This document shows, piece after piece, positions 3,657 through 50,150 of a stretch of 64,000 nt of DNA; within the stretch, counting starts at the first letter, position 1; the number at the start of each line of letters is the position of its first letter. The DNA comes from Candidatus Buchananbacteria bacterium RIFCSPLOWO2_01_FULL_39_33 (GTDB lineage Bacteria > Patescibacteriota > Patescibacteriia > 2-01-FULL-39-33), in NCBI GenBank assembly GCA_001817505.1, contig MHIM01000004.1, positions 6,953 through 70,952 of the forward strand, given 5' to 3'. A program made the position numbers and the translations under genes. Under the pieces are notes generated by a model. That model was given only the letters and a program-made list of their open reading frames with translations, had not been told where the DNA came from and ran no database searches.

Positions 3657-5057
3657 ATGCCTGATATCGTGTCTAATTCTTTGGCCAAGTTGCCGCCGCA
3701 AAATATTGAGGCGGAGCAATCGCTGATCGGCGCCATTTTAATTGATAAGGATGCCATCATCAAAATAGCTGATATGCTTTCTCCCAATGATTTTTATCGT
3801 GAAGCGCATGCCGCCTTATATGGAACTATTCTGGAATTATTTGAAAAGAAAGAAGCTATAGATATTTTAAGTTTAACTAGCCGGTTGGAAGAAAAAAAGA
3901 AACTGGAAGCCATTGGCGGCCGCAGTTATCTGGTAACCCTCACCAACCAAACGCCGTCAGCCGCCCACGTGGTTTCTTACGCCCAAATCATCCAAAAAAA
4001 AGCAACCTTAAGACGGTTGATTTCCGCCGCCAATAATATCCTGGAATTGGGTTACCATGAAGAAAAAGAAGTTAATGATATTTTGGACAAAGCCGAACAG
4101 TCGGTTTTTGCCGTTTCCCAGCAATTTTTAAAAGAAAAATTCATTCCTATTCAGGATGTTTTGTCGGCCGCTTTTGACAGAATTGATCAATTGCATCGGG
4201 AAAAAGGCAAATTAAGGGGCTTGCCGACCGGCTATTCTGACTTGGATAATCTTTTGGCTGGCTTTCAAAAATCGGATCTAATCGTCTTGGCCGCCCGGCC
4301 TTCGGTCGGCAAAACCTCACTAGCTTTAGATATCGCCAGGCACGTGGCTATCAAAGCCAAGAAATCAATCGGCATCTTTTCTTTGGAAATGTCCAAAGAA
4401 CAGCTGGTTGACCGCTTGATCTGCGCCCAAGCCGGAGTTGGCCTATGGAAAATGAGAACCGGCCGATTATCGGAAACAACCGATGACTTCCCAAAAATCG
4501 GTCAGGCCATGAGTGAACTTTCCGAAAGCCGTATTTATATTGATGATTTTGCCAATACTAATGTCATGGAACTGCGTACTAAAGCCCGGCGCCTGCAAAT
4601 GGAACACGGGCTGGATATGGTTATAATTGATTACTTGCAATTAATGGAAGGTAGCGGCCGCAAATCCAGCTTTGAAAATCGCGTCCAAGAAATTGCCGAG
4701 ATTTCCCGCGCTTTAAAAGGCCTAGCCAGGGAATTGGACATACCGGTTTTGGCCTTATCCCAGCTTTCTCGGGCCGTTGAACAAGCCAGTCCGGCCATAC
4801 CAAAATTATCGCATCTAAGAGAATCGGGCTCTATTGAACAGGATGCTGATGTGGTGATGTTCATTTATCGCAAAGCCGCCGACCGGAGTTTTGATATCAA
4901 CTCGCTGACTGAAGAGGAAAAAAATTCGGCTGAGATTTATATCGCCAAGCACCGCAATGGTCCGACCGGCCAAGTTAAACTGTATTTTCAAAGCGATTTA
5001 GTCAGTTTTAGGACATTAGAAACTAAACGTCAAGTGACTGAAAACCCGGAGATGTAG
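3657..5057 (+). CDS. dnaB: replicative DNA helicase DnaB
   Basis: N-terminal LPPQNIEAEQSLIGAIL, Walker A GKTSLAL, FSLEMS, and a RecA-like C-terminal domain. Length 466 aa. Confidence 0.9.
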   Translation: MPDIVSNSLAKLPPQNIEAEQSLIGAILIDKDAIIKIADMLSPNDFYREAHAALYGTILELFEKKEAIDILSLTSRLEEKKKLEAIGGRSYLVTLTNQTPSAAHVVSYAQIIQKKATLRRLISAANNILELGYHEEKEVNDILDKAEQSVFAVSQQFLKEKFIPIQDVLSAAFDRIDQLHREKGKLRGLPTGYSDLDNLLAGFQKSDLIVLAARPSVGKTSLALDIARHVAIKAKKSIGIFSLEMSKEQLVDRLICAQAGVGLWKMRTGRLSETTDDFPKIGQAMSELSESRIYIDDFANTNVMELRTKARRLQMEHGLDMVIIDYLQLMEGSGRKSSFENRVQEIAEISRALKGLARELDIPVLALSQLSRAVEQASPAIPKLSHLRESGSIEQDADVVMFIYRKAADRSFDINSLTEEEKNSAEIYIAKHRNGPTGQVKLYFQSDLVSFRTLETKRQVTENPEM

Positions 5058-21070: not shown

Positions 21071-21596
21071 GTTCAAACAAGTTGGATGGTTGCTCTGATG
21101 CCGTCAATTGGCGGAATATCGGAGAGGAAAGTCCGAACACTCTTTGATAATTTATCAATATTTATCAATGTCATGGTAGTGGGTAACGCCCACCGGCTAG
21201 ATTGCAAAATATAGTCAGGACCAGTTCCACAGAGACAATACTAACCAGTACTACGCATTAGAAATCCTAAATCCAAAAATACAAACCCCAAATAAATTAA
21301 TTCAAAAAATAAAAATTGAATTCAAAATTGGGAGTTGGAAATTTGGTGCTTGGAATTTCCACTGCGTGGTAGTGGTAAAAGGTGAAAAGTGTTATGATGT
21401 TTTGGGATTAAGCAAGGGATATCCCCTTAGCCCAAAGCTACATGACTCAACTGTCGGCAACCGGCAGTTTGTGGTAAACTCTACCTGGTGCAACCTCAAA
21501 TATAGTAGAGGGCTGGAGCTTGCCAGCAATGACAAGCCAAGATAGATAACCATCTCCCTAACAGGAACAGAATTCGGCTTACAGGCTTGTTTGAAC
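21071..21596 (+). ncRNA. rnpB: RNase P RNA (bacterial type A) with a large AT-rich internal expansion
   Basis: P4 strands GAGGAAAGTCCGAAC and ACAGAATTCGGCTTACAGGC are present. P1 pairs gttcaaacaag (21071..) with cttgtttgaac (..21596). A GGTAACGCCCACC module is also seen. Confidence 0.8.
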
Positions 21597-21603
21597 AAAA
21601 AAA

Positions 21604-33499: not shown

Positions 33500-33709
33500 T
33501 AAGGTTAGCCGGCTTCACATTAACCAATGATTTTGTAACGTACAAAACATAATTATATCATACTTTAAAAATTTTGTCAATAGTTACGTTAATTAGATGA
33601 TATATTTAGCTAAAATTAAATAAAATATAAAAATAGAGACGCATTGCAATGCGTCTCTATAATTAATAAATTCACTAATTTCCTATTTCTAATTTTTTGT
33701 TTTCTTGTT

Positions 33710-36361
33710 TTATTGTTTTCTTTCTCTAATCACCGCTTGAGCAGCTGCTAATCGAGCAATTGGCACTCTAAAAGGCGAACAGGAAACATAATCAAAACCC
33801 TGTCCATGGCAAAATTCCACACTGCTGGGTTCGCCGCCGTGCTCGCCGCAAATGCCGATTTTCAGATCGCTTCTGACTTTCCTGCCTTTCTCCACGGCGA
33901 TTCTGATTAATTCGCCCACGCCTTCTTGGTCTAAGACCTCAAAAGGATCCCGATCATAAATGCCTTTGGCTACGTATTCTTTTAAGAATTTGCCGGCATC
34001 ATCACGGCTGAAACCGCAGCCCATTTGCGTCAAATCATTGGTGCCGAAAGAAAAAAATTCTGCTTCTTCGGCAATCTGATCAGCGGTTACAGCGGCTCTG
34101 GGCACTTCAATCATCGTGCCAATCTTATAAGGCAAATCAAGGCCTGAACTTTTAATAATGGCCTTAGCGATCTCCACCGTCCTTTGCTTTAAAATTGAAA
34201 ATTCTTTACTGTTGCCGACTAAAGGAATCATTATTTCCGGCGCAACTTGGCTTGATCGGCCACAAGTTGGACACTCTTTGGCAACCTCAATAGCCGCTTC
34301 AATTATGGCTCGGACCTGCATATCGTAAATTTCCGGATAAGTAATGGCCAGCCGGCAACCCCGGTGGCCAAGCATCGGATTAAATTCATGCAAATCGGAA
34401 ATCTTGGCTTTCAACGTGCCGGCATCAACTTCCATTTCCCTGGCTAAATCATAAATATCTTTTTCAGTGATTGGCAAAAATTCATGCAACGGCGGATCCA
34501 GCAATCTAATAGTTACCGGATAACCTTCCATAGTTTTAAATAAGCCGATAAAATCCTGTTTTTGGTAAGGCAATAATTTAGCCAGAGCTTTTTGGCGTCC
34601 CTCAACATCCGAAGCTAAAATCATTTCCCTAACTGCTTTTATTCTATCACCTTCAAAAAACATATGCTCTGTTCGACATAAGCCGATGCCTTCAGCGCCG
34701 AATTTTCTGGCTACTTTAGCATCCTGGGGGGTATCGGCATTAGTTCTGATTTTTAATTCTCTTATTTCATCAGACCAGTTCATAATAGTCCCGAAATCGC
34801 CGCTTAACTCCGGCTCTTGGGTATTTAATTTGCCTAAATAAACTTGGCCATCGCCGCCATCAAGAGTTATAAAATCACCTTCTTTGACCACCAATCCACT
34901 CTCTTTAAGAGTGAACTTCCTGCCTTTTTCATCAATCTGTATATCAGCGCAGCCAGCGATACAGCAAGTACCCAGGCCTCTAGCGACAACAGCAGCGTGT
35001 GAAGTCATACCGCCTCTGGCGGTTAAGATACCCTTAGCGCTATGCATGCCGTCAATGTCTTCAGGCGAAGTTTCAACTCTAACCAACACGACATCTAAAC
35101 CTTGTTGAGTTTTTTTATAGGCCTCGGCGGCGGTAAAAACAACTTGACCAACAGCGGCTCCCGGCGAAGCCGGTAAGCCGGTGGCTATCACTTCAGCTTT
35201 GGCTTTAGCTATTAGATCCAGTTGCTTGTGCAATAATTGATCCAATTGTTCCGGCTGAACTTTCATTAAGGCCTCGGCTTTAGTTAAAACGCCTTCTTTG
35301 ACCAAATCAACGGCAATTTTCACAGTCGCCGCCGCTGTTCTTTTGCCATTTCTGGCCTGTAAAATAAAAAGCTTACCTCCTTGAATGGTGAATTCCATAT
35401 CCTGCATATCTTGATAATGTTTTTCCACCTGATCGCAAATAGCCACCAATTCATCATAAATAGCTTTATTTTGCTCGGCTAAAGCGGAAATCGGTTGGGG
35501 AGTTCTAATGCCGGCTACCACATCTTCGCCTTGGGCATTCATCAGATATTCGCCATAAAATTTATTTTCACCGGTTGAGGGATTTCTGGTAAAGCAAACA
35601 CCAGTGCCGGAATTTTCATTTAAGTTGCCAAAAACCATGGCTTGGATATTAACCGCCGTGCCGACTAAGCCCTTGATATTATTAATTTCTCTATATCTAA
35701 TAGCCCGATAATTGTTCCAAGAATTAAAAACCGCATCAATAGATAATTGCAGTTGTTCCATTGGGTCTTGGGGAAAATCCCGACCCTTTAATTCAATGAT
35801 TTTAGCTCGGTATCTTTTAACTATGGCCTCCAGATGTCCAGCTGTTAAATCAGTGTCAGACTGGACGCCAACAGTATCTTTGACCTTTTCTAAAATTTCC
35901 TCAAATTCACTGCCCTTAATTTCCATCACCACCTCGCCAAACATTTGGATGAATCTCCGATATGAGTCCCAAGCAAACCTGGGATTATTTGATTTTTGAG
36001 CTAAGCCCTCAACTGATTGGTCATTAAGGCCTAAATTGAGAATAGTATCCATCATCCCCGGCATAGAAGCGGCCGCACCGGAACGAACCGAAACTAACAG
36101 CGGATCATTGGCCTCACCCAACTTTTTACCCATTTTATTTTCCAATTCCCGAAGCTGGTGACTGATTTGTTCTTTGACCTCACTAGGATAATTTTTGTTA
36201 TTCTGGTGATAAATATCACAAACTTCAGTAGTAACAGTAAAGCCCGGCGGCACTCTAATACCCAAGCCGCTCATTTCCGCCAAGTTAGCGCCTTTGCCGC
36301 CTAGAATGGCTTTCATTTCCCTATTCCCCTCCTCAAAAGAATAAACGTACTTCTTCTCCAT
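33710..36361 (-). CDS. ppdK: pyruvate, phosphate dikinase
   Basis: 883 aa. N-terminal MKAILGGKGANLAEM, a phosphohistidine domain (GGMTSHAAVVARG) and a PEP-utilising C-terminal domain. Confidence 0.9.
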   Translation of the reverse strand: MEKKYVYSFEEGNREMKAILGGKGANLAEMSGLGIRVPPGFTVTTEVCDIYHQNNKNYPSEVKEQISHQLRELENKMGKKLGEANDPLLVSVRSGAAASMPGMMDTILNLGLNDQSVEGLAQKSNNPRFAWDSYRRFIQMFGEVVMEIKGSEFEEILEKVKDTVGVQSDTDLTAGHLEAIVKRYRAKIIELKGRDFPQDPMEQLQLSIDAVFNSWNNYRAIRYREINNIKGLVGTAVNIQAMVFGNLNENSGTGVCFTRNPSTGENKFYGEYLMNAQGEDVVAGIRTPQPISALAEQNKAIYDELVAICDQVEKHYQDMQDMEFTIQGGKLFILQARNGKRTAAATVKIAVDLVKEGVLTKAEALMKVQPEQLDQLLHKQLDLIAKAKAEVIATGLPASPGAAVGQVVFTAAEAYKKTQQGLDVVLVRVETSPEDIDGMHSAKGILTARGGMTSHAAVVARGLGTCCIAGCADIQIDEKGRKFTLKESGLVVKEGDFITLDGGDGQVYLGKLNTQEPELSGDFGTIMNWSDEIRELKIRTNADTPQDAKVARKFGAEGIGLCRTEHMFFEGDRIKAVREMILASDVEGRQKALAKLLPYQKQDFIGLFKTMEGYPVTIRLLDPPLHEFLPITEKDIYDLAREMEVDAGTLKAKISDLHEFNPMLGHRGCRLAITYPEIYDMQVRAIIEAAIEVAKECPTCGRSSQVAPEIMIPLVGNSKEFSILKQRTVEIAKAIIKSSGLDLPYKIGTMIEVPRAAVTADQIAEEAEFFSFGTNDLTQMGCGFSRDDAGKFLKEYVAKGIYDRDPFEVLDQEGVGELIRIAVEKGRKVRSDLKIGICGEHGGEPSSVEFCHGQGFDYVSCSPFRVPIARLAAAQAVIRERKQ

Positions 36362-38326: not shown

Positions 38327-39466
38327 CTATTCTTTTAATTTTACTCCGCCTCTTTTCTTAATTCCTTTGAGCGGAATGGAAACATAAAATGTCGTGCCGC
38401 CATTTTCAATTGACTCAAACCAAACCTGGCCATTTAATTTTTCCACCGCCAGTTGGACAATATAAAGACCCAAACCAGTGCCTTCAGTTAATTTTTCTTT
38501 GGCATTTTTAGCTCTAAACAATCTGCTAAATATTTGAGCTTGCTGGTCTTTGGGTATGCCAATGCCAGTATCAGCAATTTTAATTAAAAGCTTATTTTTA
38601 AGTTTATTGATACTAATAAAAACCTGGCCATTTTTAGGCGTGTACTTGACAGCGTTAGAAAGAAGGTTTTGGCCAATAATCCTGGCTAACTTAGAATCAA
38701 GAATAATGTTGGGAATTGATTTATCATACTTTTCTTCAATTCTTATTTTTTTATTCTTAATCAGAGGGAATAGTTCTGATAAAACGCTTTCAATAACCTC
38801 TTTAAAATTAACCACTTCTGGTTTGATGGTAATTGTCCCTAAATCTATCCTGGAAATATTCAAAAGATCATTTACTAATTCAATCATTCTTTGAGTGCCA
38901 TGATAAATTTCTTCAACGTATCGGTTTTGCTCTTTGGTTAATTTGCCGGTGTCACCAGTCAGCATCATCTCCGAATACCAATTAATAGTTGACAACGGCG
39001 TTCTAAGTTGATGGGAAGCCAAAGAGACAAATTCTGTCTTGGTCTGTTCAATTTCCTTATCCTGGGTGGTATCGCGAAAAATAATAAAACTGCCAATTAT
39101 TTTATCGTCTTTATCTTTAAAAGGTGTGACACTGATAGCCACCGAGACCGTCTTGCCATTGGATTTTAAAATAATGCTATTTTTATTAAAATCTCTTACA
39201 CTCTTGCCAGATTTAACTAATTTTTCAATTAAATCATTTAAATCTTTTCCAGTTTTTCCATCTACAAATCTTATGAAATTTTGTTTTTTATTAATAATAT
39301 GGCTTAGAGGCAATTCAATTAATTTCAAAGCCGTATTATTGGCATACAAAATAACGCCATCAATATTTAGAATAATAACAGCGTTAGGTGAATTATCAAC
39401 TACTGTTTTAAAAACTGATAAACCAATAACTTGGCTAGCTAAACTTCTCTTATTAAATAAAAACAT
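38327..39466 (-). CDS. PAS-domain sensor histidine kinase (soluble)
   Basis: PAS region, H-box HQLRTPLSTI, N-box NLLSNAVKYT, DTGIGIP and GTGLGL. Confidence 0.8.
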   Translation of the reverse strand: MFLFNKRSLASQVIGLSVFKTVVDNSPNAVIILNIDGVILYANNTALKLIELPLSHIINKKQNFIRFVDGKTGKDLNDLIEKLVKSGKSVRDFNKNSIILKSNGKTVSVAISVTPFKDKDDKIIGSFIIFRDTTQDKEIEQTKTEFVSLASHQLRTPLSTINWYSEMMLTGDTGKLTKEQNRYVEEIYHGTQRMIELVNDLLNISRIDLGTITIKPEVVNFKEVIESVLSELFPLIKNKKIRIEEKYDKSIPNIILDSKLARIIGQNLLSNAVKYTPKNGQVFISINKLKNKLLIKIADTGIGIPKDQQAQIFSRLFRAKNAKEKLTEGTGLGLYIVQLAVEKLNGQVWFESIENGGTTFYVSIPLKGIKKRGGVKLKE

Positions 39467-39510
39467 TACAAAATTAACTTAGGATATTAAAATTGGAAAA
39501 AATTAACTTT

Positions 39511-40047
39511 TTACCTGGTAATATTGATAGTGGCTCCACTTTCAGCATTGGGGGCAGTTATTGTCACCCGGCCGGTAGTGGCATCTTTCGAAATGGTATA
39601 ACCAGTGGTATCTCCGGCAGTAGCAGTCAAGCTGGGATCAACTGGCATAGAAACAATATAAGTGGGCACTAAATCGCCACTTAATTCAACCAAACCAGTG
39701 CAAGTTCCAGTATCTAAACAAATTGCCGTATCAGTCGTAGTTATAGCCGCTGGCAAGTAACCATTATTATCCAAAGAATACTGATAAACGGCATTTAAAA
39801 TAGTATTAACATCAACTTTTCTTTGAGCGTTTCTGGTATCGCCTAATTGTTTGCCGGGATTAATGGCAATAATGACAATACCGGCTAAAATGCCAATCGC
39901 CGCCACTACTAATAGAATTTCTAGCAGGGTGAATCCAGCACCACTTTTCTTCTTGGATAAGAAAGATACATTAAATTTATCACTTACATCACCGCTATCA
40001 AAGTGGTGCTGGGTGAAACCCCTTTGCTTTTGGAATAATTTTTTCAT
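39511..40047 (-). CDS. type IV pilin-like protein (prepilin N-terminal cleavage/methylation motif)
   Basis: KKKSGAGFTLLEILLVVAAIGILAGIVI with an unusually long (about 34 aa) leader. Confidence 0.7.
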   Translation of the reverse strand: MKKLFQKQRGFTQHHFDSGDVSDKFNVSFLSKKKSGAGFTLLEILLVVAAIGILAGIVIIAINPGKQLGDTRNAQRKVDVNTILNAVYQYSLDNNGYLPAAITTTDTAICLDTGTCTGLVELSGDLVPTYIVSMPVDPSLTATAGDTTGYTISKDATTGRVTITAPNAESGATINITR

Positions 40048-40088
40048 GTTTTTTAATTATTAATAATTATTAATATTATACCACTATA

Positions 40089-40529
40089 TTAAAAATCAGC
40101 CAATTCTTGCCAAGACAAAATATTAATTTGCGGATTAATCTGGTCAATATTTAATTTTACTTTTCTAACCGCCTTCCCAGCCTGGCCAGAGGCAATAATC
40201 AGCCGGCTTTCACTACCGGTATTAGCGACCGTAAAAGAGCAGCTGCCTTGAGTTAAAGATAAATTGCCAGAACCAGAAAAATTGATATCATTTCTTACTT
40301 CCTGAAGAGCCTGTTCAGCGCAAGCATTGGCTAAAGATTTGGCTTGAGCTGACTTTTCCAAAGACAGACTGGACTGGCTAGCGCCTAAACCTAATAAAAC
40401 CAAAGAAACTGTTATAGCCAAACCGACGGCACCGACTACTAAAACGCTAAGCAGGGTAACATAACCTTCGGTTTTGATTAATTTTTTATCTAAGCGAAGC
40501 CGAACCATAAAAGGTCTTGGTGTAATCAT
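40089..40529 (-). CDS. hypothetical pilus-associated membrane protein
   Basis: 146 aa, N-terminal TM helix, located inside the pilus operon. Confidence 0.35.
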   Translation of the reverse strand: MITPRPFMVRLRLDKKLIKTEGYVTLLSVLVVGAVGLAITVSLVLLGLGASQSSLSLEKSAQAKSLANACAEQALQEVRNDINFSGSGNLSLTQGSCSFTVANTGSESRLIIASGQAGKAVRKVKLNIDQINPQINILSWQELADF

Positions 40530-41343
40530 ACTCTTTTTTATTCTCCGGATTAATATGCTTTAAGGTAAATGTTATTCTGACAGTGCCGGGGGTATTAGTG
40601 ATAGACAAATTATCAAAATTTAAATTAGAGGATTCTATTCTAGAGGAGGTTAGATTAACCGGTAAATTAGATCCTTCGGCCATTAAAATAGCTGTGCCTG
40701 ACAAGCTAAAAATAGTCGGGCTTAATGAAATATCAGAAACATTCAAAGATAATTGCGAGGCGCTGCTACCGGCCATTGGTGAATTAATAACCTCGGAGTT
40801 GCGAATAGTTTGAGTGATTATATTCATCACCTGCCAACCCTGTTGTTCAACTTCTGAAACAACTTGGTTATCTACCCGCGATTGTAAAATTACCGATAAA
40901 AATATGGAAACAGTTAAAAGCATAGCTGATGACAGACCGATATAAAGCAATAATTCAATTAGGGTAAACCCAGCACCACTTTTATCGTTAACGATAAAAG
41001 TGGTGCTGGGTAAACCCTCAACCTCATTATTTTTTTTATTTTTATCAATATTAATATTAATCAATCCATTTCTCTTTTTTAATTCTCTTATTGCGTTGCC
41101 ATTATATTTTAATCTTTTCTCTCTAACCCTTGCTAATCGTTCTGTTTTATATGATTCATAATAAACTAAAGTCCAAGGCATATAACGCCTTGTTGATTTT
41201 TCTTTTCCACTATTATGTTTGGAAAATCTTCTTTTTAGATCTCCCGTTGAACCGATATATATCTCACTATTCATGTTATTTTTTAATAAATAAACATAAT
41301 ACATATAATTAAAAGTGGTGCTGGGTGAAACCTTTTTTATCAA
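40486..41343 (-). CDS. GIY-YIG nuclease domain (about 81 aa) fused in-frame to a prepilin-like protein
   Basis: YYVYLLKN..EIYIGSTGDLKRRFSKHN...WTLVYYESY is the GIY-YIG fold. No stop intervenes before KSGAGFTLIELLL and the pilin body. The listed start is TTG; the ATG (MYYVY) is at 41304. Confidence 0.5.
   Translation of the reverse strand: MIKKVSPSTTFNYMYYVYLLKNNMNSEIYIGSTGDLKRRFSKHNSGKEKSTRRYMPWTLVYYESYKTERLARVREKRLKYNGNAIRELKKRNGLININIDKNKKNNEVEGLPSTTFIVNDKSGAGFTLIELLLYIGLSSAMLLTVSIFLSVILQSRVDNQVVSEVEQQGWQVMNIITQTIRNSEVINSPMAGSSASQLSLNVSDISLSPTIFSLSGTAILMAEGSNLPVNLTSSRIESSNLNFDNLSITNTPGTVRITFTLKHINPENKKEYDYTKTFYGSASLR
40962..41017. repeat. 56-nt near-perfect palindrome spanning the pilin N-terminal coding region
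   Basis: gggtaaacccagcaccactttt-atcgttaacgat-aaaagtggtgctgggtaaaccc. Related arms lie at 39935..39948 and 40000..40013 (inverted pair) and 41311..41332. Confidence 0.7.
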
Positions 41344-41353
41344 TGACCATAAA

Positions 41354-43249
41354 TTAAGGAATAATATTGCTTATTAATTTAGTTGAACCGTCAAGCATAA
41401 TAAAATTTATACTCAAAGTAGTACCAGTCATATTTTTATTAAAAATAAGATAGGTTAGAGGGTAAGTAACTGATGGTAATAAAGTAAAGTTGCTGATGTT
41501 CTCGGTCGCACCCGAGTTATTGCTGCCGGTCCAAACTGAAACGGCATTAATAGTAATTCCTGTTATTTTGGTGCCACTAAATGCTCCAGTCCAAGAGACA
41601 ATCATTTGATCTAAAATTATGTCGGCGGCGCCAATATTAGAAATGGTCAAACCGATTACTCTTTTATTATTAGTAGAATCTATGCCGGCACCAGTAATAT
41701 TAACGTTTAACAAATCAGCCTGCGATTGCGCTAAAGTAGTGGCGCTGGGAACATCAGACAAAAGTGAGGTATTAGGCACTTCATCAGAGGTCTTGATGGC
41801 AAAATAATAAGTAGTGTTAGAAGACAGACCGGAAACTGTCAGAGATTGAGCAGTGCCAGCTATCAAAGGCGCTGGTTCGCCTGATACTTGAGTGGCTGTT
41901 GCCCAATTAGCTTCAGTGATCAGTGAAGTTGAATAGCGTATATCATAGGTTGTAGCCGTACCGGTATCACCATCATCACCGGGAGAAGTCCAACTTAATA
42001 AAACTGAATTCAGAGTTATATTGGAAATAGTTAAATTGGTAATAGCAGCTGGCGATGTTGTATCGACTGAAAGCGGCAAGGTAGCAACGCTGGGAACATT
42101 AGACAAAAGCGAGGTATTGGGCACTTCATCAGCGGTCTTAATGGCCAAGTAATAAATGGTTGAAGGTAATAAATTGGAAACTGTCGCTGATTGAGCAGTG
42201 CCAGCTACTTGAGGTATTGGTTCACCAGTTAATTGTAAAGCCGTTGCCCAATTGCTATCATTGATCGGATTAGTAGAATATCTAATATCATAAGAAGCGG
42301 CTGTTCCTGTATTGCCATCATCACCGGGAGCAGTCCAGGACAAATCAATTGAATCAGAAGTTGGATTAGAAACTGATAAATCAATTACCGCTGATGGCGG
42401 AGTGATATCGGCAATTGTTCCGGGAGAAAAAGTAGCGGTAGCAATTGAGCCATCAGCCATAATAAAATCAAGAGTAATGGTCGTGCCCGTCATATTCCTG
42501 TTAAAATCTAAAAAGTCAATTAGATAAACAGTATTGCCGACTGGCAGAGTAAAATCGGTAATATTTAAGGTAGTGCCTGAATTAGCGCTGCCACTCCAAA
42601 CTGAACTGCCGGCTAAATAAACATTATTTATTTTAGAACCGCCTTCTCCATTAATCCAAGAAACAACCATTTGATTAATAGTTATATCAGCTAAGCCGTT
42701 ATTTTTCAAAGTTAAACCAATTATCTTGGTATTATCTAAAGCATCAAGATCAGAAGAACTGCTATCAATAATCAAATCAGTAGCTTGAGAAGTTCCCAGA
42801 GCCATCCAATAAGTCAGATAAGTGTCTAAAGAAACACTGCCAGATCTTTGTAGATTCTGCTGCCAAGTTACAGTGGAAGTTATTTTTTTAGTATCGCTAT
42901 TGATAGGACTGATGGTAATTTGACGGGTAAAATTTCCAATAACATCACTGGAACCGGCAATATTCCAACGACCGCCGACAACTTGCAAGCCATAAGTGCC
43001 ATCAATCAAATTACTAAAATCATCATCTCTGATATTTTTAACCGCTTCCAATCCCTCCTCGGCTAAAAAAACCGCTTGAGCTCTTTGGCCAGATAAAACT
43101 GTGCTTTCTTGGCCATAAATTATAGCCCCGACCAAAGCAGTAGTTATCAGAATAAACACCGAGCTAGCCAAAATAACCTCTACCAAAGAAAAACCACGAT
43201 TAGTAACTAACCAATCCTTTGGCATTAATTGTGATAGTTTTTGAATCAT
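41354..43249 (-). CDS. large minor pilin/pseudopilin with two fibronectin type III domains
   Basis: Prepilin N-terminus RGFSLVEVILASSVFIL. Two near-identical FN3 repeats of about 95 aa (DLSWTAPGDDGNTGTAASYDIRYST...), flanked by two related beta-rich modules. Confidence 0.65.
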   Translation of the reverse strand: MIQKLSQLMPKDWLVTNRGFSLVEVILASSVFILITTALVGAIIYGQESTVLSGQRAQAVFLAEEGLEAVKNIRDDDFSNLIDGTYGLQVVGGRWNIAGSSDVIGNFTRQITISPINSDTKKITSTVTWQQNLQRSGSVSLDTYLTYWMALGTSQATDLIIDSSSSDLDALDNTKIIGLTLKNNGLADITINQMVVSWINGEGGSKINNVYLAGSSVWSGSANSGTTLNITDFTLPVGNTVYLIDFLDFNRNMTGTTITLDFIMADGSIATATFSPGTIADITPPSAVIDLSVSNPTSDSIDLSWTAPGDDGNTGTAASYDIRYSTNPINDSNWATALQLTGEPIPQVAGTAQSATVSNLLPSTIYYLAIKTADEVPNTSLLSNVPSVATLPLSVDTTSPAAITNLTISNITLNSVLLSWTSPGDDGDTGTATTYDIRYSTSLITEANWATATQVSGEPAPLIAGTAQSLTVSGLSSNTTYYFAIKTSDEVPNTSLLSDVPSATTLAQSQADLLNVNITGAGIDSTNNKRVIGLTISNIGAADIILDQMIVSWTGAFSGTKITGITINAVSVWTGSNNSGATENISNFTLLPSVTYPLTYLIFNKNMTGTTLSINFIMLDGSTKLISNIIP

Positions 43250-43649
43250 TAATAGTGGTTAAAATAAGCGTGCCAGAACTTTGCGGCCAGCCCGTGAATT
43301 TATTAAAAATTATTTCTTGATTGCCTGAAGGAGTTATGGTCTTAGCTAAATCAAAAACTTCATCAAAGCCGATATCGCGACTAAAATAACTGGCGCCTTT
43401 AAAAATTGTTATTTTATTGTTGCCAACATAAACACCCCAAGTCATGTCCCCTTCAACTGCTTGAGATAATAACTGTGCCCTTCTTAATGATTGGGCTACA
43501 GTATTGACAGCCAAATCAAGATCATTTCTGACTTGAAAGGACTGATAAACGGGTACACCAATACCAGCGATAATAGCAATCACTGCTATTGAAAGAAGCA
43601 TTTCCAGCAAAGTAAAACCAGTAATTTTATTAAACGATTTAAAACCCAT
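43200..43649 (-). CDS. pseudopilin (GspH/minor-pilin-like)
   Basis: ITGFTLLEMLLSIAVIAIIAGIG is a prepilin methylation motif. Confidence 0.6.
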   Translation of the reverse strand: MGFKSFNKITGFTLLEMLLSIAVIAIIAGIGVPVYQSFQVRNDLDLAVNTVAQSLRRAQLLSQAVEGDMTWGVYVGNNKITIFKGASYFSRDIGFDEVFDLAKTITPSGNQEIIFNKFTGWPQSSGTLILTTINDSKTITINAKGLVSY

Positions 43650-43659
43650 AATAGAATTT

Positions 43660-45132
43660 TTACTGGTTGATAAGTTCTACATAATCACCAAAGACCCAGC
43701 CAGTAGCGGCTGAAGGTAAAATTATTTCATACCAGCCAGCTTGCTCACTTTGATATTCATAAATCTCATCAGGATAAATCCTTAATAAGATACGGCCATT
43801 TAAATTGGGATTATCTCTGACATTTAAATAACCAACGGGGGTTGGTTTGATTTTTAATTTTTTAAGAGAAATAATATTCTCGGTAGTGGTAGCCAGTGGT
43901 TGTTCGGCTATTTCTTCAATTTCAATAATCGGTGAAGGCGGCAAAGGAGTTGAAGTTGATGACGACTGGCTCAAGCCGCCAATCAAGCTATAAATCGGTA
44001 AGATTACCGCCAAAGCCACCGCCACCACGCCCAGCCAGATTATTATCAAAAGAACCGGTTCAAGAATAATGGCTAAATTTTTAGTACTGATTTCTGTTTT
44101 CTCTTCAAAAATCTCGCCAATTTTTAACAAGGTCTCTGGCAGACAGCCTGATTTTTCAGCCGAACCGATCATTTGTTGAACGGGAATAGTTATTAATTTA
44201 TCACTATTTTTATAAAGGCCAAAAGTCCTATATATAGAATTGCCATTTTCAAGGCTTTTTTGTAAAAAATAAAAAAACTTTTTATAATTATAAAAAGTTG
44301 TAGCTTCAGCCAACGAGCTAATTGAATTAACAATTGGCAAGCCAGCCTTAAGCAGAGTACCTAAAATATAACCCAACTGGGCCATTTGCACTTGCTGGAT
44401 TAACTTGCCAACGCCGGGAATTTTAAAAAGAAGATACTGGCCAATGAATTTGGTCTTATAAAATATGAAGACAAAATAAATTATCAGCAGTAAAAATAAA
44501 ATTGAAATCGGAAAAAAAATAAAACCATAAACCTCTATAAATTTGCCAGTGGCTATTAAAACCTTAGTTAAAAATGGCAAGTCCAATCTTAATTGATTAA
44601 AAACGGAAGCTAAGCGGGGCAGAATAAACCAAGAAATCCCAATACCAATAACGCCAGTCAAAACTAAAACCAGCACCGGATACATCATAGCTGAATTTAC
44701 TTTTGACCTAAAAGACCTTTCTTTTTGCTGTTGGATAACTATTACCTTTAAATTATCGGCCAATTTGCCAGTTTCTTCGCCTATCCTGATCAGTGAAATA
44801 ATATGCTCGGGAAACAATTTACTTTCAATTAATGATTGGGATAAGGAAAAACCGGCATCAATATTACCTTTTAAATCACTGACTATGTCTTTTAATTTTT
44901 TTGATCTAATATCTGATTGGATGGCGTCTAAAGAAGATAAAAGATCCAGGCCTGATAATAAGAGCATAGATAAGTTTTCTATGAGATAATCTTTTTCTGC
45001 CGCCAAGCCGAAATTAGAAATAAAAGGCAGGTTAAAGCGCTTTTGATGAGTAGTTTTATATTCTTTTATGGCCTTAACCCGAGCTGGTAAAATTGTAGCT
45101 GTATTTTTTTTAACCTTTCTTTGACTAACCAT
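43660..45132 (-). CDS. pilC: type IV pilus platform protein PilC/GspF fused to a C-terminal SH3b-like domain
   Basis: Two GspF repeats with TM helices. After a Ser/Thr/Pro linker, the C-terminus reads YLNVRDNPNLNGRILLRIYPDE..GWYEIIL..GWVFGDYV, which is SH3b-like. Confidence 0.75.
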   Translation of the reverse strand: MVSQRKVKKNTATILPARVKAIKEYKTTHQKRFNLPFISNFGLAAEKDYLIENLSMLLLSGLDLLSSLDAIQSDIRSKKLKDIVSDLKGNIDAGFSLSQSLIESKLFPEHIISLIRIGEETGKLADNLKVIVIQQQKERSFRSKVNSAMMYPVLVLVLTGVIGIGISWFILPRLASVFNQLRLDLPFLTKVLIATGKFIEVYGFIFFPISILFLLLIIYFVFIFYKTKFIGQYLLFKIPGVGKLIQQVQMAQLGYILGTLLKAGLPIVNSISSLAEATTFYNYKKFFYFLQKSLENGNSIYRTFGLYKNSDKLITIPVQQMIGSAEKSGCLPETLLKIGEIFEEKTEISTKNLAIILEPVLLIIIWLGVVAVALAVILPIYSLIGGLSQSSSTSTPLPPSPIIEIEEIAEQPLATTTENIISLKKLKIKPTPVGYLNVRDNPNLNGRILLRIYPDEIYEYQSEQAGWYEIILPSAATGWVFGDYVELINQ

Positions 45133-45142
45133 TATTTATTTT

Positions 45143-46798
45143 TTAAGTTTTGTCGATAAAAGGAGGAGCGGCTACCCGCAGTAATTCTTCAATAGTCGTC
45201 TCACCCTGCTTGACTTTTATTAGGCCGTCTTCAAAAAGAGTTTGAGCGCCTTCTTTGGTGGCTAATTCCCAAATTCTCTGGGTAGATGGATTGGTTAATA
45301 TCAATTCTTTCATTTTTGGCGTTATAGAAATAAATTCAAAAATAGCTATTCGGCCTTTATAACCGGTCTGGTTGCAAACATGGCAACCCTTACCCTTATA
45401 AAGAGTGTTGGTTTTAGAAAAATATTCTTTAGCCGAAGGAAAAAATTTTGATAATTCATTAAGGCTGACAAAGTAACTATGACGACATGATTGGCAAACT
45501 TTTCTAACCAAACGCTGAGCAATTAAAACTTCCATGGTCGAAGCCAAGAGGAATGGTTCAATACCCATATCCAATAGACGAGGGATAGCGGTGGCAGCAT
45601 CATTAGCATGAAAGGTGGACAATAATAAATGACCGGTTAAAGCGGCATTAACCGCTATTTCAGCTGTCTCATTGTCTCTAATTTCACCAACTAAGATGAC
45701 ATCCGGGTCCTGACGGACAATGGAACGCAGACCTTTGGCAAAAGTTAAGTTGGTTTGCAGATTAACTTGTATTTGATTTAAACCAGCTATCCGGTATTCA
45801 ATGGGGTCTTCAATAGTAGTGATATTAATATCTATGTGGTTAAGTATTTTCAAAACGGCATAAAGGGTGGTGGTCTTGCCCGCGCCAGTGGGGCCAGTAA
45901 CCAAAATCATGCCAAAGGGCTTTTGCGAGGCCTCTTTGATTAATTTCTGATGGAGAGCGTTCAAACCCAAATCCGCCAAAGCAAAGGCCTTAACATATTC
46001 GGAGAGAAGGCGCATAACTATTTTTTCGCCCTCAATAATGGGTATGATGGAAACTCGAAAATCAATAATTCTTTCATTTTTTACAAAGTGGATAGATCCG
46101 TCTTGAGCAGCCAAATGCTCATCAGTTCTTAAATGGGCCTGAACTTTGATACGATTTAAAATATTTTCATAATAACCCTTTTTTATCCGACCCGCTTCTT
46201 GTAAAACCCCGTCTATTCTAAAGCGAATTATAACTTCCATGGCCTGCGGTTCAAAATGTATGTCAGAAGCCCGATAAAGAACAGCGTCTTCAAATATTTC
46301 TTCAAGGATCTCTGGAGCCACACGGGTTTGCATTTTAATGATTTGAGCAAAGCGAGTTGATAAGGGCTGCCGATAATTAACAAAAATATTATCAATATCT
46401 TGAGGCAATGAATAGGCCAATGTTATTTTTTTGTTGGGAAATATTTTTTCAACTTCTTTTAATATTTCTTTATTGGTCGGATCATCAGAAGCAATAATAA
46501 CGGACTTGGCCTCTTGAGAAAAAAGAACTAAGCGATGCTTTCTGGCTATATTTTCCGGTATTTTTAAGACCTGGGCGGCCGGTGGAATATTAGAATTTAA
46601 ATCAGCATAAGGCACTTTAAAAAATTCGGCTAAGGCCTGGCCCAATAAATCAAAACTAATCAATTGTTCAGTGATCAAATAATCAATTATGGAAACCTGA
46701 TTAACTGCAGCGTAATCATCGGCCTTTTTAAGATCACTCTCGGTTATATAATCGCCTTTCAAAAGGATAGCGCCTATTTTTTGGTCGTTAAGATTCAT
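45143..46798 (-). CDS. pilB: type IV pilus assembly ATPase PilB/GspE
   Basis: Walker A LVTGPTGAGKTTTL, Asp/His boxes, and a tetracysteine motif (CQSC...CHVC). Confidence 0.9.
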   Translation of the reverse strand: MNLNDQKIGAILLKGDYITESDLKKADDYAAVNQVSIIDYLITEQLISFDLLGQALAEFFKVPYADLNSNIPPAAQVLKIPENIARKHRLVLFSQEAKSVIIASDDPTNKEILKEVEKIFPNKKITLAYSLPQDIDNIFVNYRQPLSTRFAQIIKMQTRVAPEILEEIFEDAVLYRASDIHFEPQAMEVIIRFRIDGVLQEAGRIKKGYYENILNRIKVQAHLRTDEHLAAQDGSIHFVKNERIIDFRVSIIPIIEGEKIVMRLLSEYVKAFALADLGLNALHQKLIKEASQKPFGMILVTGPTGAGKTTTLYAVLKILNHIDINITTIEDPIEYRIAGLNQIQVNLQTNLTFAKGLRSIVRQDPDVILVGEIRDNETAEIAVNAALTGHLLLSTFHANDAATAIPRLLDMGIEPFLLASTMEVLIAQRLVRKVCQSCRHSYFVSLNELSKFFPSAKEYFSKTNTLYKGKGCHVCNQTGYKGRIAIFEFISITPKMKELILTNPSTQRIWELATKEGAQTLFEDGLIKVKQGETTIEELLRVAAPPFIDKT

Positions 46799-48971: not shown

Positions 48972-50150
48972 TTATTTAACAGGGTTAACAATACTAAATC
49001 TTTTTCTTCTCCTTTGGCAGCTGGCGGCATTGCCGAAACGATGCGCTTCGTCCCGGACTTTTACCAGCATTATTCTTTGCGATTGCGCCAATTCCCTGAC
49101 GGCCTGGCTCATTTTATCAGGGAACACCATTCTATCACCAGCGAATTTAGAAAGACCGATAATCGGAATATTGAGATGGAGATCACGAAAAATTTTACTG
49201 ATATAATCAATTTGCGGTCGTCCGCCGTCAATTAAAATCAAATTAGGCCATGGCCATTCCTGGTGCTTGAATCTCCTTCTGATCATTTCTTCCAAAGCCC
49301 GCAAATCATCATTTTTGGGAGCTTCTTTGATGTTGAATAAGCGGTATTCATCCTTAGCTAACTGGCCATTAATGGCTACCGACATAGCGCCAATCGTTTC
49401 TTGACCGGTCAGATGGGAAATATCATAACCCTCAATCCGGTTTTTGACAGCCCTGGCATCAACTTCATCTTGGGTAATTAAAGTCACATCCTGGATATTT
49501 TTAAGTAGGCCGGCTAATTTCGGATTGTCTTTCTTTAATTTTTTCACTAACCTTTTCTTTTGGCCTTTGAATAATAAAACTATATTTTGGATATTTTCCT
49601 GGTAATCTTTCTGGGTAATTTCGCCAATACAAGTTCCTGGACAAAGCCCGACTTGATAATCAAAGCATGGCCGGCCTGAATTAGGCAGGCAAGTGCTGTA
49701 AGGAAAAACCCGTCGGATAATCCTTAAAGTATTTTTGAGCAAGGTGGCATTCTGATAAGGGCCGAAGATATGCACTTGGTTAGTAGGAAATTTATTCAAT
49801 TCCCGTTCGCGAACAATAATCGGATAAGCATAAGCTTTTTTAGAAATCACCACAAAAATAAAAGACCGCTGGTCTTTGTCTTTGACATTATATTTCGGCC
49901 AATGCTTTTTTATCAGATTGGCTTCCAAAATCACCGCTTCCAAGACAGTATCGGTTTTTTTATGCCTGATGCTTTTAGCCAAAGATACCATTTCAGCTAT
50001 GCGAGAATCAATATCTTTCCTAAAATACTGCAAGACACGTTTTTTCAAGCTGGTCGCCCGGCCAATATAAAGAATCTCGCCCTTTTGGCCGATGAACATA
50101 TAAACACCTGGAGATAATGGTAATTTAACTGCTTTTTCTTTCAAATTCAT
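48972..50150 (-). CDS. uvrC: excinuclease ABC subunit C, short form (GIY-YIG plus RNase H-like endonuclease domains)
   Basis: PGVYMFIGQKGEILYIGRATSLKKRV is GIY-YIG. C-terminal LILIDGGRPQ...IIGLSK...VRDEAHRFG. Only 392 aa; UVR and (HhH)2 regions are not apparent. Confidence 0.7.
   Translation of the reverse strand: MNLKEKAVKLPLSPGVYMFIGQKGEILYIGRATSLKKRVLQYFRKDIDSRIAEMVSLAKSIRHKKTDTVLEAVILEANLIKKHWPKYNVKDKDQRSFIFVVISKKAYAYPIIVRERELNKFPTNQVHIFGPYQNATLLKNTLRIIRRVFPYSTCLPNSGRPCFDYQVGLCPGTCIGEITQKDYQENIQNIVLLFKGQKKRLVKKLKKDNPKLAGLLKNIQDVTLITQDEVDARAVKNRIEGYDISHLTGQETIGAMSVAINGQLAKDEYRLFNIKEAPKNDDLRALEEMIRRRFKHQEWPWPNLILIDGGRPQIDYISKIFRDLHLNIPIIGLSKFAGDRMVFPDKMSQAVRELAQSQRIMLVKVRDEAHRFGNAASCQRRRKRFSIVNPVK

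Follow-up and report, generated by a model that had tools for sequence, protein, structure and literature searches.

Inverted repeats in two prepilin genes of a Candidatus Buchananbacteria genome as probable termini of a small mobile element associated with a GIY-YIG nuclease gene

Inverted repeats at the pilin locus

We analysed a group of inverted repeats at the type IV pilus locus of Candidatus Buchananbacteria bacterium RIFCSPLOWO2_01_FULL_39_33, in a 64,000-nucleotide (nt) stretch of contig MHIM01000004.1 (assembly GCA_001817505.1) that we refer to as the window. The repeats fall at the N-termini of two pilin genes of a minus-strand operon, designated pilin 1 and pilin 2 (Table 1), the second of which includes the coding region of a small GIY-YIG nuclease. 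The window has five copies of the repeat arms, YCCMGCACCACTTTT / AAAAGTGGTGCKGGR, all of them inside 1.4 kb; the rest of the 64 kb has none. When up to three mismatches were allowed, the 22-mer AAAAGTGGTGCTGGGTGAAACC matched at 39999-40020, 40996-41017 and 41311-41332 on the plus strand and at 40962-40983 on the minus strand, with a fifth arm at 39934-39948, and it was not found in any of 100 shuffles. A preliminary description of this DNA had reported inverted copies at three places, one of them just upstream of the GIY-YIG start; all are present where shuffling predicts none, the last being the copy at 41311-41332. The same description held that the motif as it was given there encodes KSGAGFT. 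Since the genes are on the minus strand, this peptide is encoded only by the minus-strand copies (40983 to 40962 and 39948 to 39927), and the three plus-strand copies are the inverted arms, in non-coding sense.

In pilin 1 the arms at 39935-39947 and 40000-40012 are complementary at 13 of 13 positions across a spacer of 52 nt; the stem described earlier is therefore real, although it had been given as 14 base pairs (bp) with a loop of about 51 nt. The palindrome in pilin 2 also exists, with the triplet mismatch ascribed to it, but spans 58 nt (40961-41018; arms 40961-40989 and 40990-41018, 93% complementary) rather than 56. Its unpaired triplet, TTT/TTT, is part of TTTA, a 4-bp direct repeat on either side of the element described below, and lies outside the inverted repeat. 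Folding of the mRNA, suggested previously as a check, gave stable structures for both 5' regions, at -49.4 kcal/mol (z = -13) for the 81 nt of pilin 2 at 40950-41030 and -35.8 kcal/mol (z = -3.8) for the 111 nt of pilin 1 at 39920-40030. The DNA folding energies were -28.4 and -18.5 kcal/mol, respectively.

Insertions in the window and empty sites in relatives

For comparison we used contigs and proteins from other assemblies, which carry L-numbers and P-numbers as labels. The orthologue of pilin 2, P0005, is 80% identical and located on contig L122, where the gene order is the same. The window and L122 are collinear over ∼4 kb at 78-84% nucleotide identity and differ by exactly two gaps, of ∼361 nt in pilin 2 and 84 nt in pilin 1, both at the pilin N-termini. 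Both insertions are missing from L122 and from a second contig, L123, at orthologous empty sites. At the pilin 1 empty site L122 reads ...CAAAAG GGT TTT ACT CTT..., or MKKLFQRQKG|FTLLE with the bar at the cleavage site, in an orthologue of 150 amino acids (aa) with a 10-residue leader; the window has MKKLFQKQRGFT-QHHFDSGDVSDKFNVSFLSKKKSGAG|FTLLE. Pilin 2 begins in L122 as taatttATGGTTGTTAACAAAAAAGGATTTACATTAATAGAA, and the window keeps the start, taatttATGGTCATTGATAAAAAAGGTTTCACC, followed by the element and a stop. Leaders of insert-free pilin homologues have ∼5-16 residues. The preliminary description had foreseen that relatives without the inverted arm, together with read data showing one fixed arrangement, would suggest a chance duplication. 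Such a relative is found in L122, whose pilins are without any arm, and this points to insertion and not to chance duplication.

The window contains three insertions, namely an 80-nt element without an open reading frame (ORF) in pilin 1 and, in pilin 2, a copy with the GIY-YIG gene followed in tandem by a 42-nt mini-hairpin. In mRNA sense, with the arms in parentheses, pilin 2 reads GGT-TTCA-(CCCAGCACCACTTTT)-aattat-ATG(GIY-YIG)...GAGGG-TTTA-(CCCAGCACCACTTTT)-atcgttaacgat-(AAAAGTGGTGCTGGG)-TTTA-CCCTA and pilin 1 reads GGT-TTCA-(CCCAGCACCACTTT)-50 nt-(AAAAGTGGTGCTGGA)-TTCA-CCCTG. The 4-bp target duplication is perfect at two of the three insertions (TTCA/TTCA and TTTA/TTTA). The remnant of the original pilin-2 start, ATG GTC ATT GAT AAA AAA GGT TTC ACC, enters the element and ends at a TAA stop (product MVIDKKGFTQHHF). 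The right arm of the mini-hairpin, AAA AGT GGT GCT GGG, encodes K-S-G-A-G, and the terminal GGG of the element together with TTTA and the host C yields GGG TTT ACC (Gly-1, Phe+1, Thr+2). The pilin-1 element is translated through in frame as QHHFDSGDVSDKFNVSFLSKKKSGAG. The repeats had been described as built on the pilin coding sequence; the direction is the reverse, as KSGA(G) comes from the right terminal inverted repeat (TIR) of the element.

Truncated copies of the element are present in L130 and L137. We also noted a 9-nt GGTGCTATT remnant at the pilin-2 site of L124 (2239-2290; KKGAIGFT) and, in L125 (372-440), a right arm alone (MNFNKNISTIKSGAGFT) with a new start codon, both of which look like stages of decay. 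At its 3' end (40486-40529) pilin 2 overlaps the next ORF (40089-40529, 146 aa), which is PilX_N-like in relatives, by 44 nt, and this overlap is also seen in L122 and L123.

Table 1. Positions in the window of the pilus genes and of the insertions with their parts
Feature	Positions	Strand	Basis or detail
PilB, type IV pilus operon	45143-46798	-	
PilC, type IV pilus operon	43660-45132	-	
Pilin-like gene	43200-43649	-	
Pilin-like gene	41354-43249	-	
Pilin-like gene (pilin 2)	40486-41343	-	
Pilin-like gene	40089-40529	-	
Pilin-like gene (pilin 1)	39511-40047	-	prepilin 1 ORF, 178 aa, 38-residue leader
Remnant of original pilin-2 start	41309-41350	-	comparison with empty-site L122
Left TTCA of 4-bp target duplication, GIY-YIG element	41326-41329	-	
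Left TIR of GIY-YIG element	41311-41325	-	CCCAGCACCACTTTT
GIY-YIG nuclease domain, 81 aa	41062-41304	-	Pfam PF01541; MYYVYLL...KKRNGL
Probable decayed right end of GIY-YIG element	41015-41031	-	AATAATGAGGTTGAGGG; comparison with homologous AAAAGTGGTGATGTTGAGGG in L128
TTTA 4-bp direct repeat between tandem elements	41011-41014	-	
ORF-less 42-nt mini-hairpin element	40969-41010	-	left arm 40996-41010, palindromic loop ATCGTTAACGAT 40984-40995, right arm 40969-40983
Right TTTA of 4-bp duplication	40965-40968	-	
Continuous ORF, 272 aa	40486-41304	-	GIY-YIG domain, disordered linker and prepilin 2
Left TTCA of 4-bp duplication, pilin-1 insertion	40014-40017	-	
ORF-less 80-nt element in pilin-1 leader	39934-40013	-	left arm 39999-40013, interior 39949-39998, right arm 39934-39948 (AAAAGTGGTGCTGGA, KSGAG)
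Right TTCA of 4-bp duplication, pilin-1 insertion	39930-39933	-	

A family of elements with terminal inverted repeats and target duplications

We scanned one genome per species for the pattern GCACCACYTT-N4-34-AARGTGGTGCKG and obtained at least 119 stretches. From the matches listed we took ∼103 true hairpins of other genomes. Nearly all are from the Candidate Phyla Radiation (CPR)/Patescibacteria, including Saccharibacteria, many Parcubacteria and Microgenomates groups and Peribacteria, with a few from Spirochaetota and others. Several hairpin loci can share one metagenome-assembled genome (MAG), with at least five loci in other MAGs. Fourteen of the ∼103 are at pilin N-termini and the majority are intergenic, and we consequently rejected a pilin-specific hairpin. 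Rfam places other copies within RNase P RNA (L101, 870-919; L112, 5869-5913), 16S rRNA (L045, 5953-6007) and group I introns (L016, 2556-2583; L116, 267-312). As the same arms are present at ∼90 non-pilin sites, coding for KSGAG cannot explain their conservation, which bears out the earlier view that it is conservation of DNA and not of protein.

The TIRs are ∼15 nt long and read YCC-MGCACCAC-TTTT and AAAA-GTGGTGCK-GGR. The outer dinucleotide beyond CMGCACCAC pairs with its partner across the arms (CC/GG or TC/GA) in 92 of 103 hairpins and so belongs to the inverted repeat. We had considered an 8-10-bp duplication of the Gly-Phe-Thr codons and dropped it, since these outer CC/GG or TC/GA pairs co-vary and the direct repeat is the next 4 nt. 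The left GGN is the host's glycine codon and the right GGR the end of the element. The 4-mers flanking the hairpins are identical in 40 of 103 cases (permutation mean 4.6, maximum 12), with a sharp peak at that register. The duplicated 4-mers include TAAA/TTTA (19), TTGA/TCAA (12), CAAG (3) and TATA (3), as well as TTCA, and usually precede C, giving TTKAC, which corresponds to the start of a -35-like hexamer or to Phe-Thr codons.

A full-length element has ∼310-340 bp, with the gene of the 81-residue GIY-YIG nuclease as its sole gene; the derivatives that lack an ORF measure 30-80 bp and consist of the bare hairpin. Among the hairpins the copy number (1-3), the loop length (4-52 nt) and the reading frame vary. 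Tandem copies are found as the pair in pilin 2, as two or three hairpins in L001, L002, L057 and L127 and as three in L114. A three-sequence alignment including the pilin 1 element and its relative in L148 showed interiors of similar length (51 nt), invariant columns within the two arms and no more than scattered matches across the interior. The locus (39300-41700) had no Rfam match at E<0.07, and a permissive threshold gave chance matches alone; viral contigs scanned with the hairpin pattern gave no match, and in full-text literature the arm sequences retrieved unrelated primers only. Resemblance to DNA uptake sequences or Chi was considered and dropped in view of the variable loops, the target duplications and the spread of the element across phyla.

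Four loci of a Spirochaetota MAG (L064, L073, L079, L080) have the same 13-nt arms and share the 14-nt loop GAGGACGGGCAATC as well as longer flanks, so that in this different phylum the hairpin is part of a larger repeat; no GIY-YIG gene is near these four loci. The window's own RNase P RNA (class A; 21074-21597, plus strand) has 524 nt against the 367 nt of the model. It contains an AT-rich, partly palindromic insertion of ∼110 nt at a helix tip (model position 136/137), which is not of the CAGCACCAC family, and smaller expansions. At 33628-33665, directly 3' of the gene for pyruvate phosphate dikinase (33710-36361, minus strand), lies a 38-nt near-perfect palindrome (TAAAAATAGAGACGCATTG / CAATGCGTCTCTATAATTA) whose sequence has no relation to that of the pilin repeats.

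The GIY-YIG nuclease and its association with prepilins

The nuclease of the window matches Pfam GIY-YIG (PF01541, E = 3.3e-16) and no specific NCBIfam family. Its best matches in the PDB by sequence and by fold are I-TevI and UPF0213, and a tblastn search of plasmids returned one match, in Azospirillum. The simplest full-length form of the element (L042, L126) consists of host M-x-GG-TTTA, a TIR, the GIY-YIG gene from its ATG, a TIR and TTTA-C. To find comparable loci in metagenomes we searched for ATGTAYTAYGT (MYYV) no more than 10 nt after a left TIR, a pattern that is neutral as to the downstream sequence. This gave 20 loci, 19 of which end in a right TIR and a prepilin. Of the sequence families among them, eight are in-frame fusions; in five the nuclease has its own stop and the element brings an ATG, placed a few codons ahead of the right TIR. 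One example is ttATGAaagcaAAAAGTGGTGCTGGG, encoding MKAKSGAG, in MKAKSGAG|FTLIEL, where start and stop overlap as TTATGA. In every TIR-MYYV-prepilin case the element provides a route to translation of the pilin.

An exhaustive phmmer search with the 81-aa domain against 1.84 billion protein cluster representatives found 436 at E<1e-10. By a strict pattern 74 of the best 100 are prepilin fusions, and a looser pattern gives 81 among the best 150, all with nuclease residues 1-81, a gap of 5-40 residues, G|F-T-L-I-E and a hydrophobic helix; relatives past about rank 100 are free-standing proteins of 80-120 aa. The pilin globular domains of the 81 fusions form at least 24 clusters without mutual BLASTP similarity. 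Median nuclease identity is 58.0% between pilin clusters and 58.8% within them, and in one pair nucleases that are 92.5% identical are joined to unrelated pilins. That nuclease identity does not depend on the pilin cluster argues that the nuclease has moved repeatedly from one pilin gene to another, and against a single old fusion. The reading frame is preserved as well: 37 of 38 right arms in a pilin-like reading context precede ORFs of pilin length (at least 41 aa, most 130-944 aa), and the frames of these 37 remain open upstream across one to three hairpins. The 38th, in L103, is followed by an ORF of 22 aa and is not in a pilin.

In the window there is no in-frame ATG, GTG or TTG between the nuclease domain and KSGAG, so that pilin 2 can be made solely as the 272-aa fusion. 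An identical fusion protein, P0001, is encoded on an independent contig of the European Nucleotide Archive (ENA). Both window pilins have the features of prepilins, with G(-1), F(+1), E(+5) and a hydrophobic helix (KSGAG|FTLIELLLY and KSGAG|FTLLEILLV), and match the N_methyl profile at E = 4e-4 and 9e-3. They depart from the short basic leader of ∼5-30 residues, having 38 residues in pilin 1 and 112, counted from the nuclease ATG, in pilin 2. We ran AlphaFold2 on an alignment of the fusions and plain orthologues. The predicted model combines a confident GIY-YIG module (pLDDT 83-90) and a confident pilin part, with a helix (115-168) plus a beta sheet, through a disordered linker (residues 85-110, pLDDT <50). 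The decayed arm and the mini-hairpin provide the coding sequence of the linker, and the predicted prepilin-peptidase site follows just after it, at 112/113 (after G112, codon 40971-40969). Foldseek matches for the nuclease module alone were UPF0213 BH0048 (1zg2), Slx1 (7cq3) and I-TevI (1ln0). The topology of the fusion is compatible with release of the nuclease into the cytoplasm by cleavage at G112|F113, a step that we infer.

Genes of other nuclease families were seen at the same leader position of pilin 2 orthologues, fused in frame, namely a DUF559 gene in L146 (1440-1900), with hairpins CCCTCCCC...GGGGAGGG, and a PDDEXK_3 nuclease gene in L147 (400-940), with flanking repeats ACGCGGATC/GATCCGCG; the prepilin leader thus looks like a general safe harbour for modules of this kind in CPR bacteria. 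Small GIY-YIG genes also lie within other inverted repeats, CCCCGCACATAAAAC...GTTTTATGTGCGGGG in L057 (5500-6000) and CCCCGCCCTCTA...TAGAGGGCGGGG in L042 (minus strand, 868-1101), which suggests that CPR genomes may hold many nuclease/TIR pairs. The window contains a second, unrelated GIY-YIG protein, a UvrC-like protein of 392 aa (48972-50150, minus strand) with GIY-YIG and UvrC RNase H domains, beside UvrA and UvrB.

Interpretation and alternatives

The reading that we favour, at a probability of roughly 0.8, is that the repeats are the TIRs of a small mobile element that inserted, with or without its GIY-YIG gene, into prepilin leaders and left the pilins intact. We have high confidence in one part of it, namely that the repeats belong to an insertion element which has TIRs and duplicates 4 bp. 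The data show the insertion itself, with its TIRs, target duplication and empty sites, the retention of the reading frame and a strong association of this GIY-YIG clade with prepilins. The element inserts at TTKA|C and duplicates the 4 bp. In pilins the target is the Phe-Thr codons (TTY AC) directly after the cleavage-site Gly, where the right TIR, ...AAA AGT GGT GCT GGR, with the duplicated TTTA and the host C recreates K-S-G-A-G|F-T. The pilin thereby retains its cleavage site, and the upstream part turns into leader, consisting of hairpin-encoded residues in pilin 1 and, in pilin 2, of the entire nuclease. The junction rebuilt in this way, GG-TTTA-C (GGTTTAC), is a target once more, which explains the tandem copies. 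The GIY-YIG protein may recognise or cleave the hairpin in the manner of an Ssn-type single-stranded-DNA nuclease and so mobilise the element; we hold this role for it with moderate confidence. Recombination between the left arms, which are direct repeats of each other, would delete the gene for the nuclease so that a solo hairpin is left, a plausible origin of some of the mini-hairpins. Removal of the nuclease-containing leader of ∼110 residues by prepilin peptidase is likewise proposed with moderate confidence. That a selfish GIY-YIG clade has specialised on prepilin leaders, its right TIR having evolved to encode K-S-G-A-G, the nuclease being produced as the pilin's N-terminal leader and the host prepilin peptidase freeing it into the cytoplasm, is more tentative, and we put it at slightly below even odds.

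Several points weigh against the favoured reading. The only ORF of the element encodes the 81-aa GIY-YIG protein, and no recognised transposase (DDE, HUH, serine or tyrosine) was found. We know of no GIY-YIG protein shown to transpose anything, and the cuts of GIY-YIG enzymes usually have overhangs of 2 nt and not a stagger of 4 bp. The exact 4-bp duplication is seen in just 39% of the hairpins, and mini-hairpin interiors vary between copies even inside one MAG, unlike a classical MITE family (miniature transposable elements with inverted repeats) copied as units. That fusions are so abundant could in part be due to survivorship and not to target preference. Type IV prepilin leaders of more than 100 residues are, to our knowledge, unprecedented, and none of the 26 window ORFs scanned is a prepilin peptidase (peptidase A24) gene.

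An unlikely alternative is a domesticated Ssn-like system, in which the hairpins are sites for a nuclease acting on incoming or replicating single-stranded DNA (ssDNA), as are the NTS repeats for SsnA in Neisseria, and the nuclease sits in pilin genes for co-expression with the DNA-uptake pilus. Any mobility would then be past; this alternative is compatible with the favoured reading and differs in who benefits. Ssn proteins are single GIY-YIG domains with genes flanked by genome-wide hairpin repeats, and they modulate natural transformation (PMC11893778). Over 66 aa the nuclease of the window shares 41% identity with a GIY-YIG protein of L098 whose gene is flanked by NTS-like hairpins, and it belongs to a clade tightly tied to type IV pilin genes. 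Against such a system stand the polymorphism of the insertions among close relatives, the spread of the nuclease clade without co-divergence over at least 24 unrelated pilin families, and the existence of truncated copies (L130/L137) and decayed arms; moreover, none of 105 hairpins matches the published SRM consensus. Less probable still is the translational or stability hairpin of the preliminary description, a pilin-specific cis-regulatory mRNA structure sequestering the start of the mature pilin. High predicted stability and recurrence at pilin N-termini in many genomes speak for it, yet the arms are found at ∼90 non-pilin sites, rRNA, RNase P RNA and introns among them, and a close relative has the orthologous genes without them. 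This distribution largely refutes such a structure; in addition, the arms have target duplications at their flanks, and copy number, loop length and frame are all variable.

The preliminary description had also raised cassette inversion or gene conversion, and recombination sites for phase or antigenic variation of the pilins, whether by inversion, cassette exchange or deletion, would fit the presence, at the 5' ends of two pilin genes, of five near-identical copies of 15-22 nt within 1.4 kb. Deletion could indeed take place between direct copies, such as one that removes the nuclease gene and leaves a solo hairpin. Inversion of the 58-nt palindrome would change nothing, however, because it is self-symmetric including its loop; silent or alternative cassettes are absent, no recombinase gene is nearby, and tandem insertions account for the arrangement, which makes variation of this kind very improbable. 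Chimeric assemblies can yield perfect palindromes, but an artefact or a chance duplication is hardly credible when shuffling predicts no copies, the identical fusion is found on the independent ENA contig (P0001) and homologous arrangements recur in dozens of independent assemblies. Among the candidates put forward earlier, target-site footprints of the GIY-YIG element came closest to the mobile element that we favour, and the nuclease gene does lie between arms.

Significance

A selfish gene of this kind would be harmless in a new way, as it would occupy a part of a host protein that is cut off anyway and bring its own cut site. If the nuclease is freed by the peptidase, this would be a protein-level counterpart of intron or intein removal that uses a host signal peptidase, and the expression of the DNA-uptake pilus would be coupled with the production of a hairpin-specific nuclease. 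Processing of the fusions would mean that folded leaders of 100 residues are tolerated by prepilin peptidases, which is relevant to type IV filament biogenesis and engineering. The empty sites, TIRs and 4-bp duplication provide sequence evidence for mobility of a GIY-YIG/hairpin module, for which the Ssn paper noted an insertion sequence (IS)-like look only. There are also consequences for annotation: many CPR pilins are labelled 'GIY-YIG nuclease' or are missed by predictors expecting short leaders, and the hairpin inflates the apparent lengths of rRNA, RNase P RNA and introns. The pair of a 15-nt hairpin and a nuclease could possibly extend the ssDNA-nuclease toolbox.

Comparison with known systems

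The closest described system is the Ssn GIY-YIG nuclease with its hairpin repeats, and the Rickettsia palindromic elements (RPEs) are also close. Ssn proteins have a single GIY-YIG domain, ∼94 aa and CDD clade cd10448, and cleave single-stranded DNA beside the hairpin repeat NTS/SRM, which flanks the ssn gene and exists in hundreds of scattered copies, rarely (2%) intragenic (Chenal et al. 2025, PMC11893778). The authors noted an insertion-sequence-like architecture and an effect on natural transformation; CPR/Patescibacteria, target duplications, empty sites and pilin insertion are not mentioned there (PMC11893778). Our system resembles Ssn in that a very small GIY-YIG protein has its gene bracketed by hairpin-forming repeats that are also present gene-free, here with an arm 5' (41311-41325) and a decayed arm plus a complete hairpin 3' (40969-41031), and the functional tie of Ssn to type IV pilus-dependent DNA uptake is a further likeness. 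It differs in that single arms bracket the gene, rather than whole hairpins as in NTS-ssnA-NTS, and in the sequence of the repeat, which has 15-nt arms; the SRM consensus HGTCWYN(0-2)YYVSBRHN(0-5)WNVSBRGN(0-2)RNCYNB matched 0 of 105 hairpins and nothing in the window. It also differs in its demonstrated 4-bp target duplication and empty sites and in the location of this clade inside prepilin genes as an in-frame fusion; all three elements of the 64-kb window are at the pilin locus. The L098 protein that is 41% identical to the window nuclease (E = 3e-11) is encoded at 4060-4560 of its contig, and its gene has four flanking NTS-like hairpins (TGTCATCCTGAA...TTCAGGATCGC and variants). A CAGCACCAC hairpin is present in a pilin on the same contig (6541-6575). 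We found nothing relevant in the literature on GIY-YIG proteins with prepilins or CPR bacteria, one paper naming GIY-YIG merely as a transferred gene (PMC12455944), and the prepilin-leader niche appears to be undescribed.

Other systems share single aspects. Homing endonucleases of the I-TevI type are likewise selfish nucleases with a GIY-YIG fold, placed in a conserved host site and removed from the product. Here, in contrast, there is a continuous ORF with no intein and no intron (Rfam found nothing at the locus), a disordered linker and then the pilin in place of a C-terminal DNA-binding module, and TIRs with a target duplication, and removal would be by prepilin peptidase and not by self-splicing. 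IS200/IS605 and REP/RAYT elements resemble the present one in their hairpin-forming ends, short tetranucleotide targets (TTAC in IS608) and scattered ORF-less hairpin derivatives; they differ by having HUH Y1 transposases, no target duplication and non-identical subterminal hairpins. RPEs, which are palindromic elements inserted in frame (reviewed in PMC10969869), and in-frame MITEs are similar as selfish palindromes that lie in frame within protein genes, and also in RNA genes, without destroying them. RPEs have ∼100-150 bp, a conserved peptide, no nuclease gene and no niche in a cleavable leader, and target many unrelated proteins, whereas the elements described here are 30-80 bp long or carry a nuclease and prefer one protein motif, at which cleavage would strip the insert from the mature protein.

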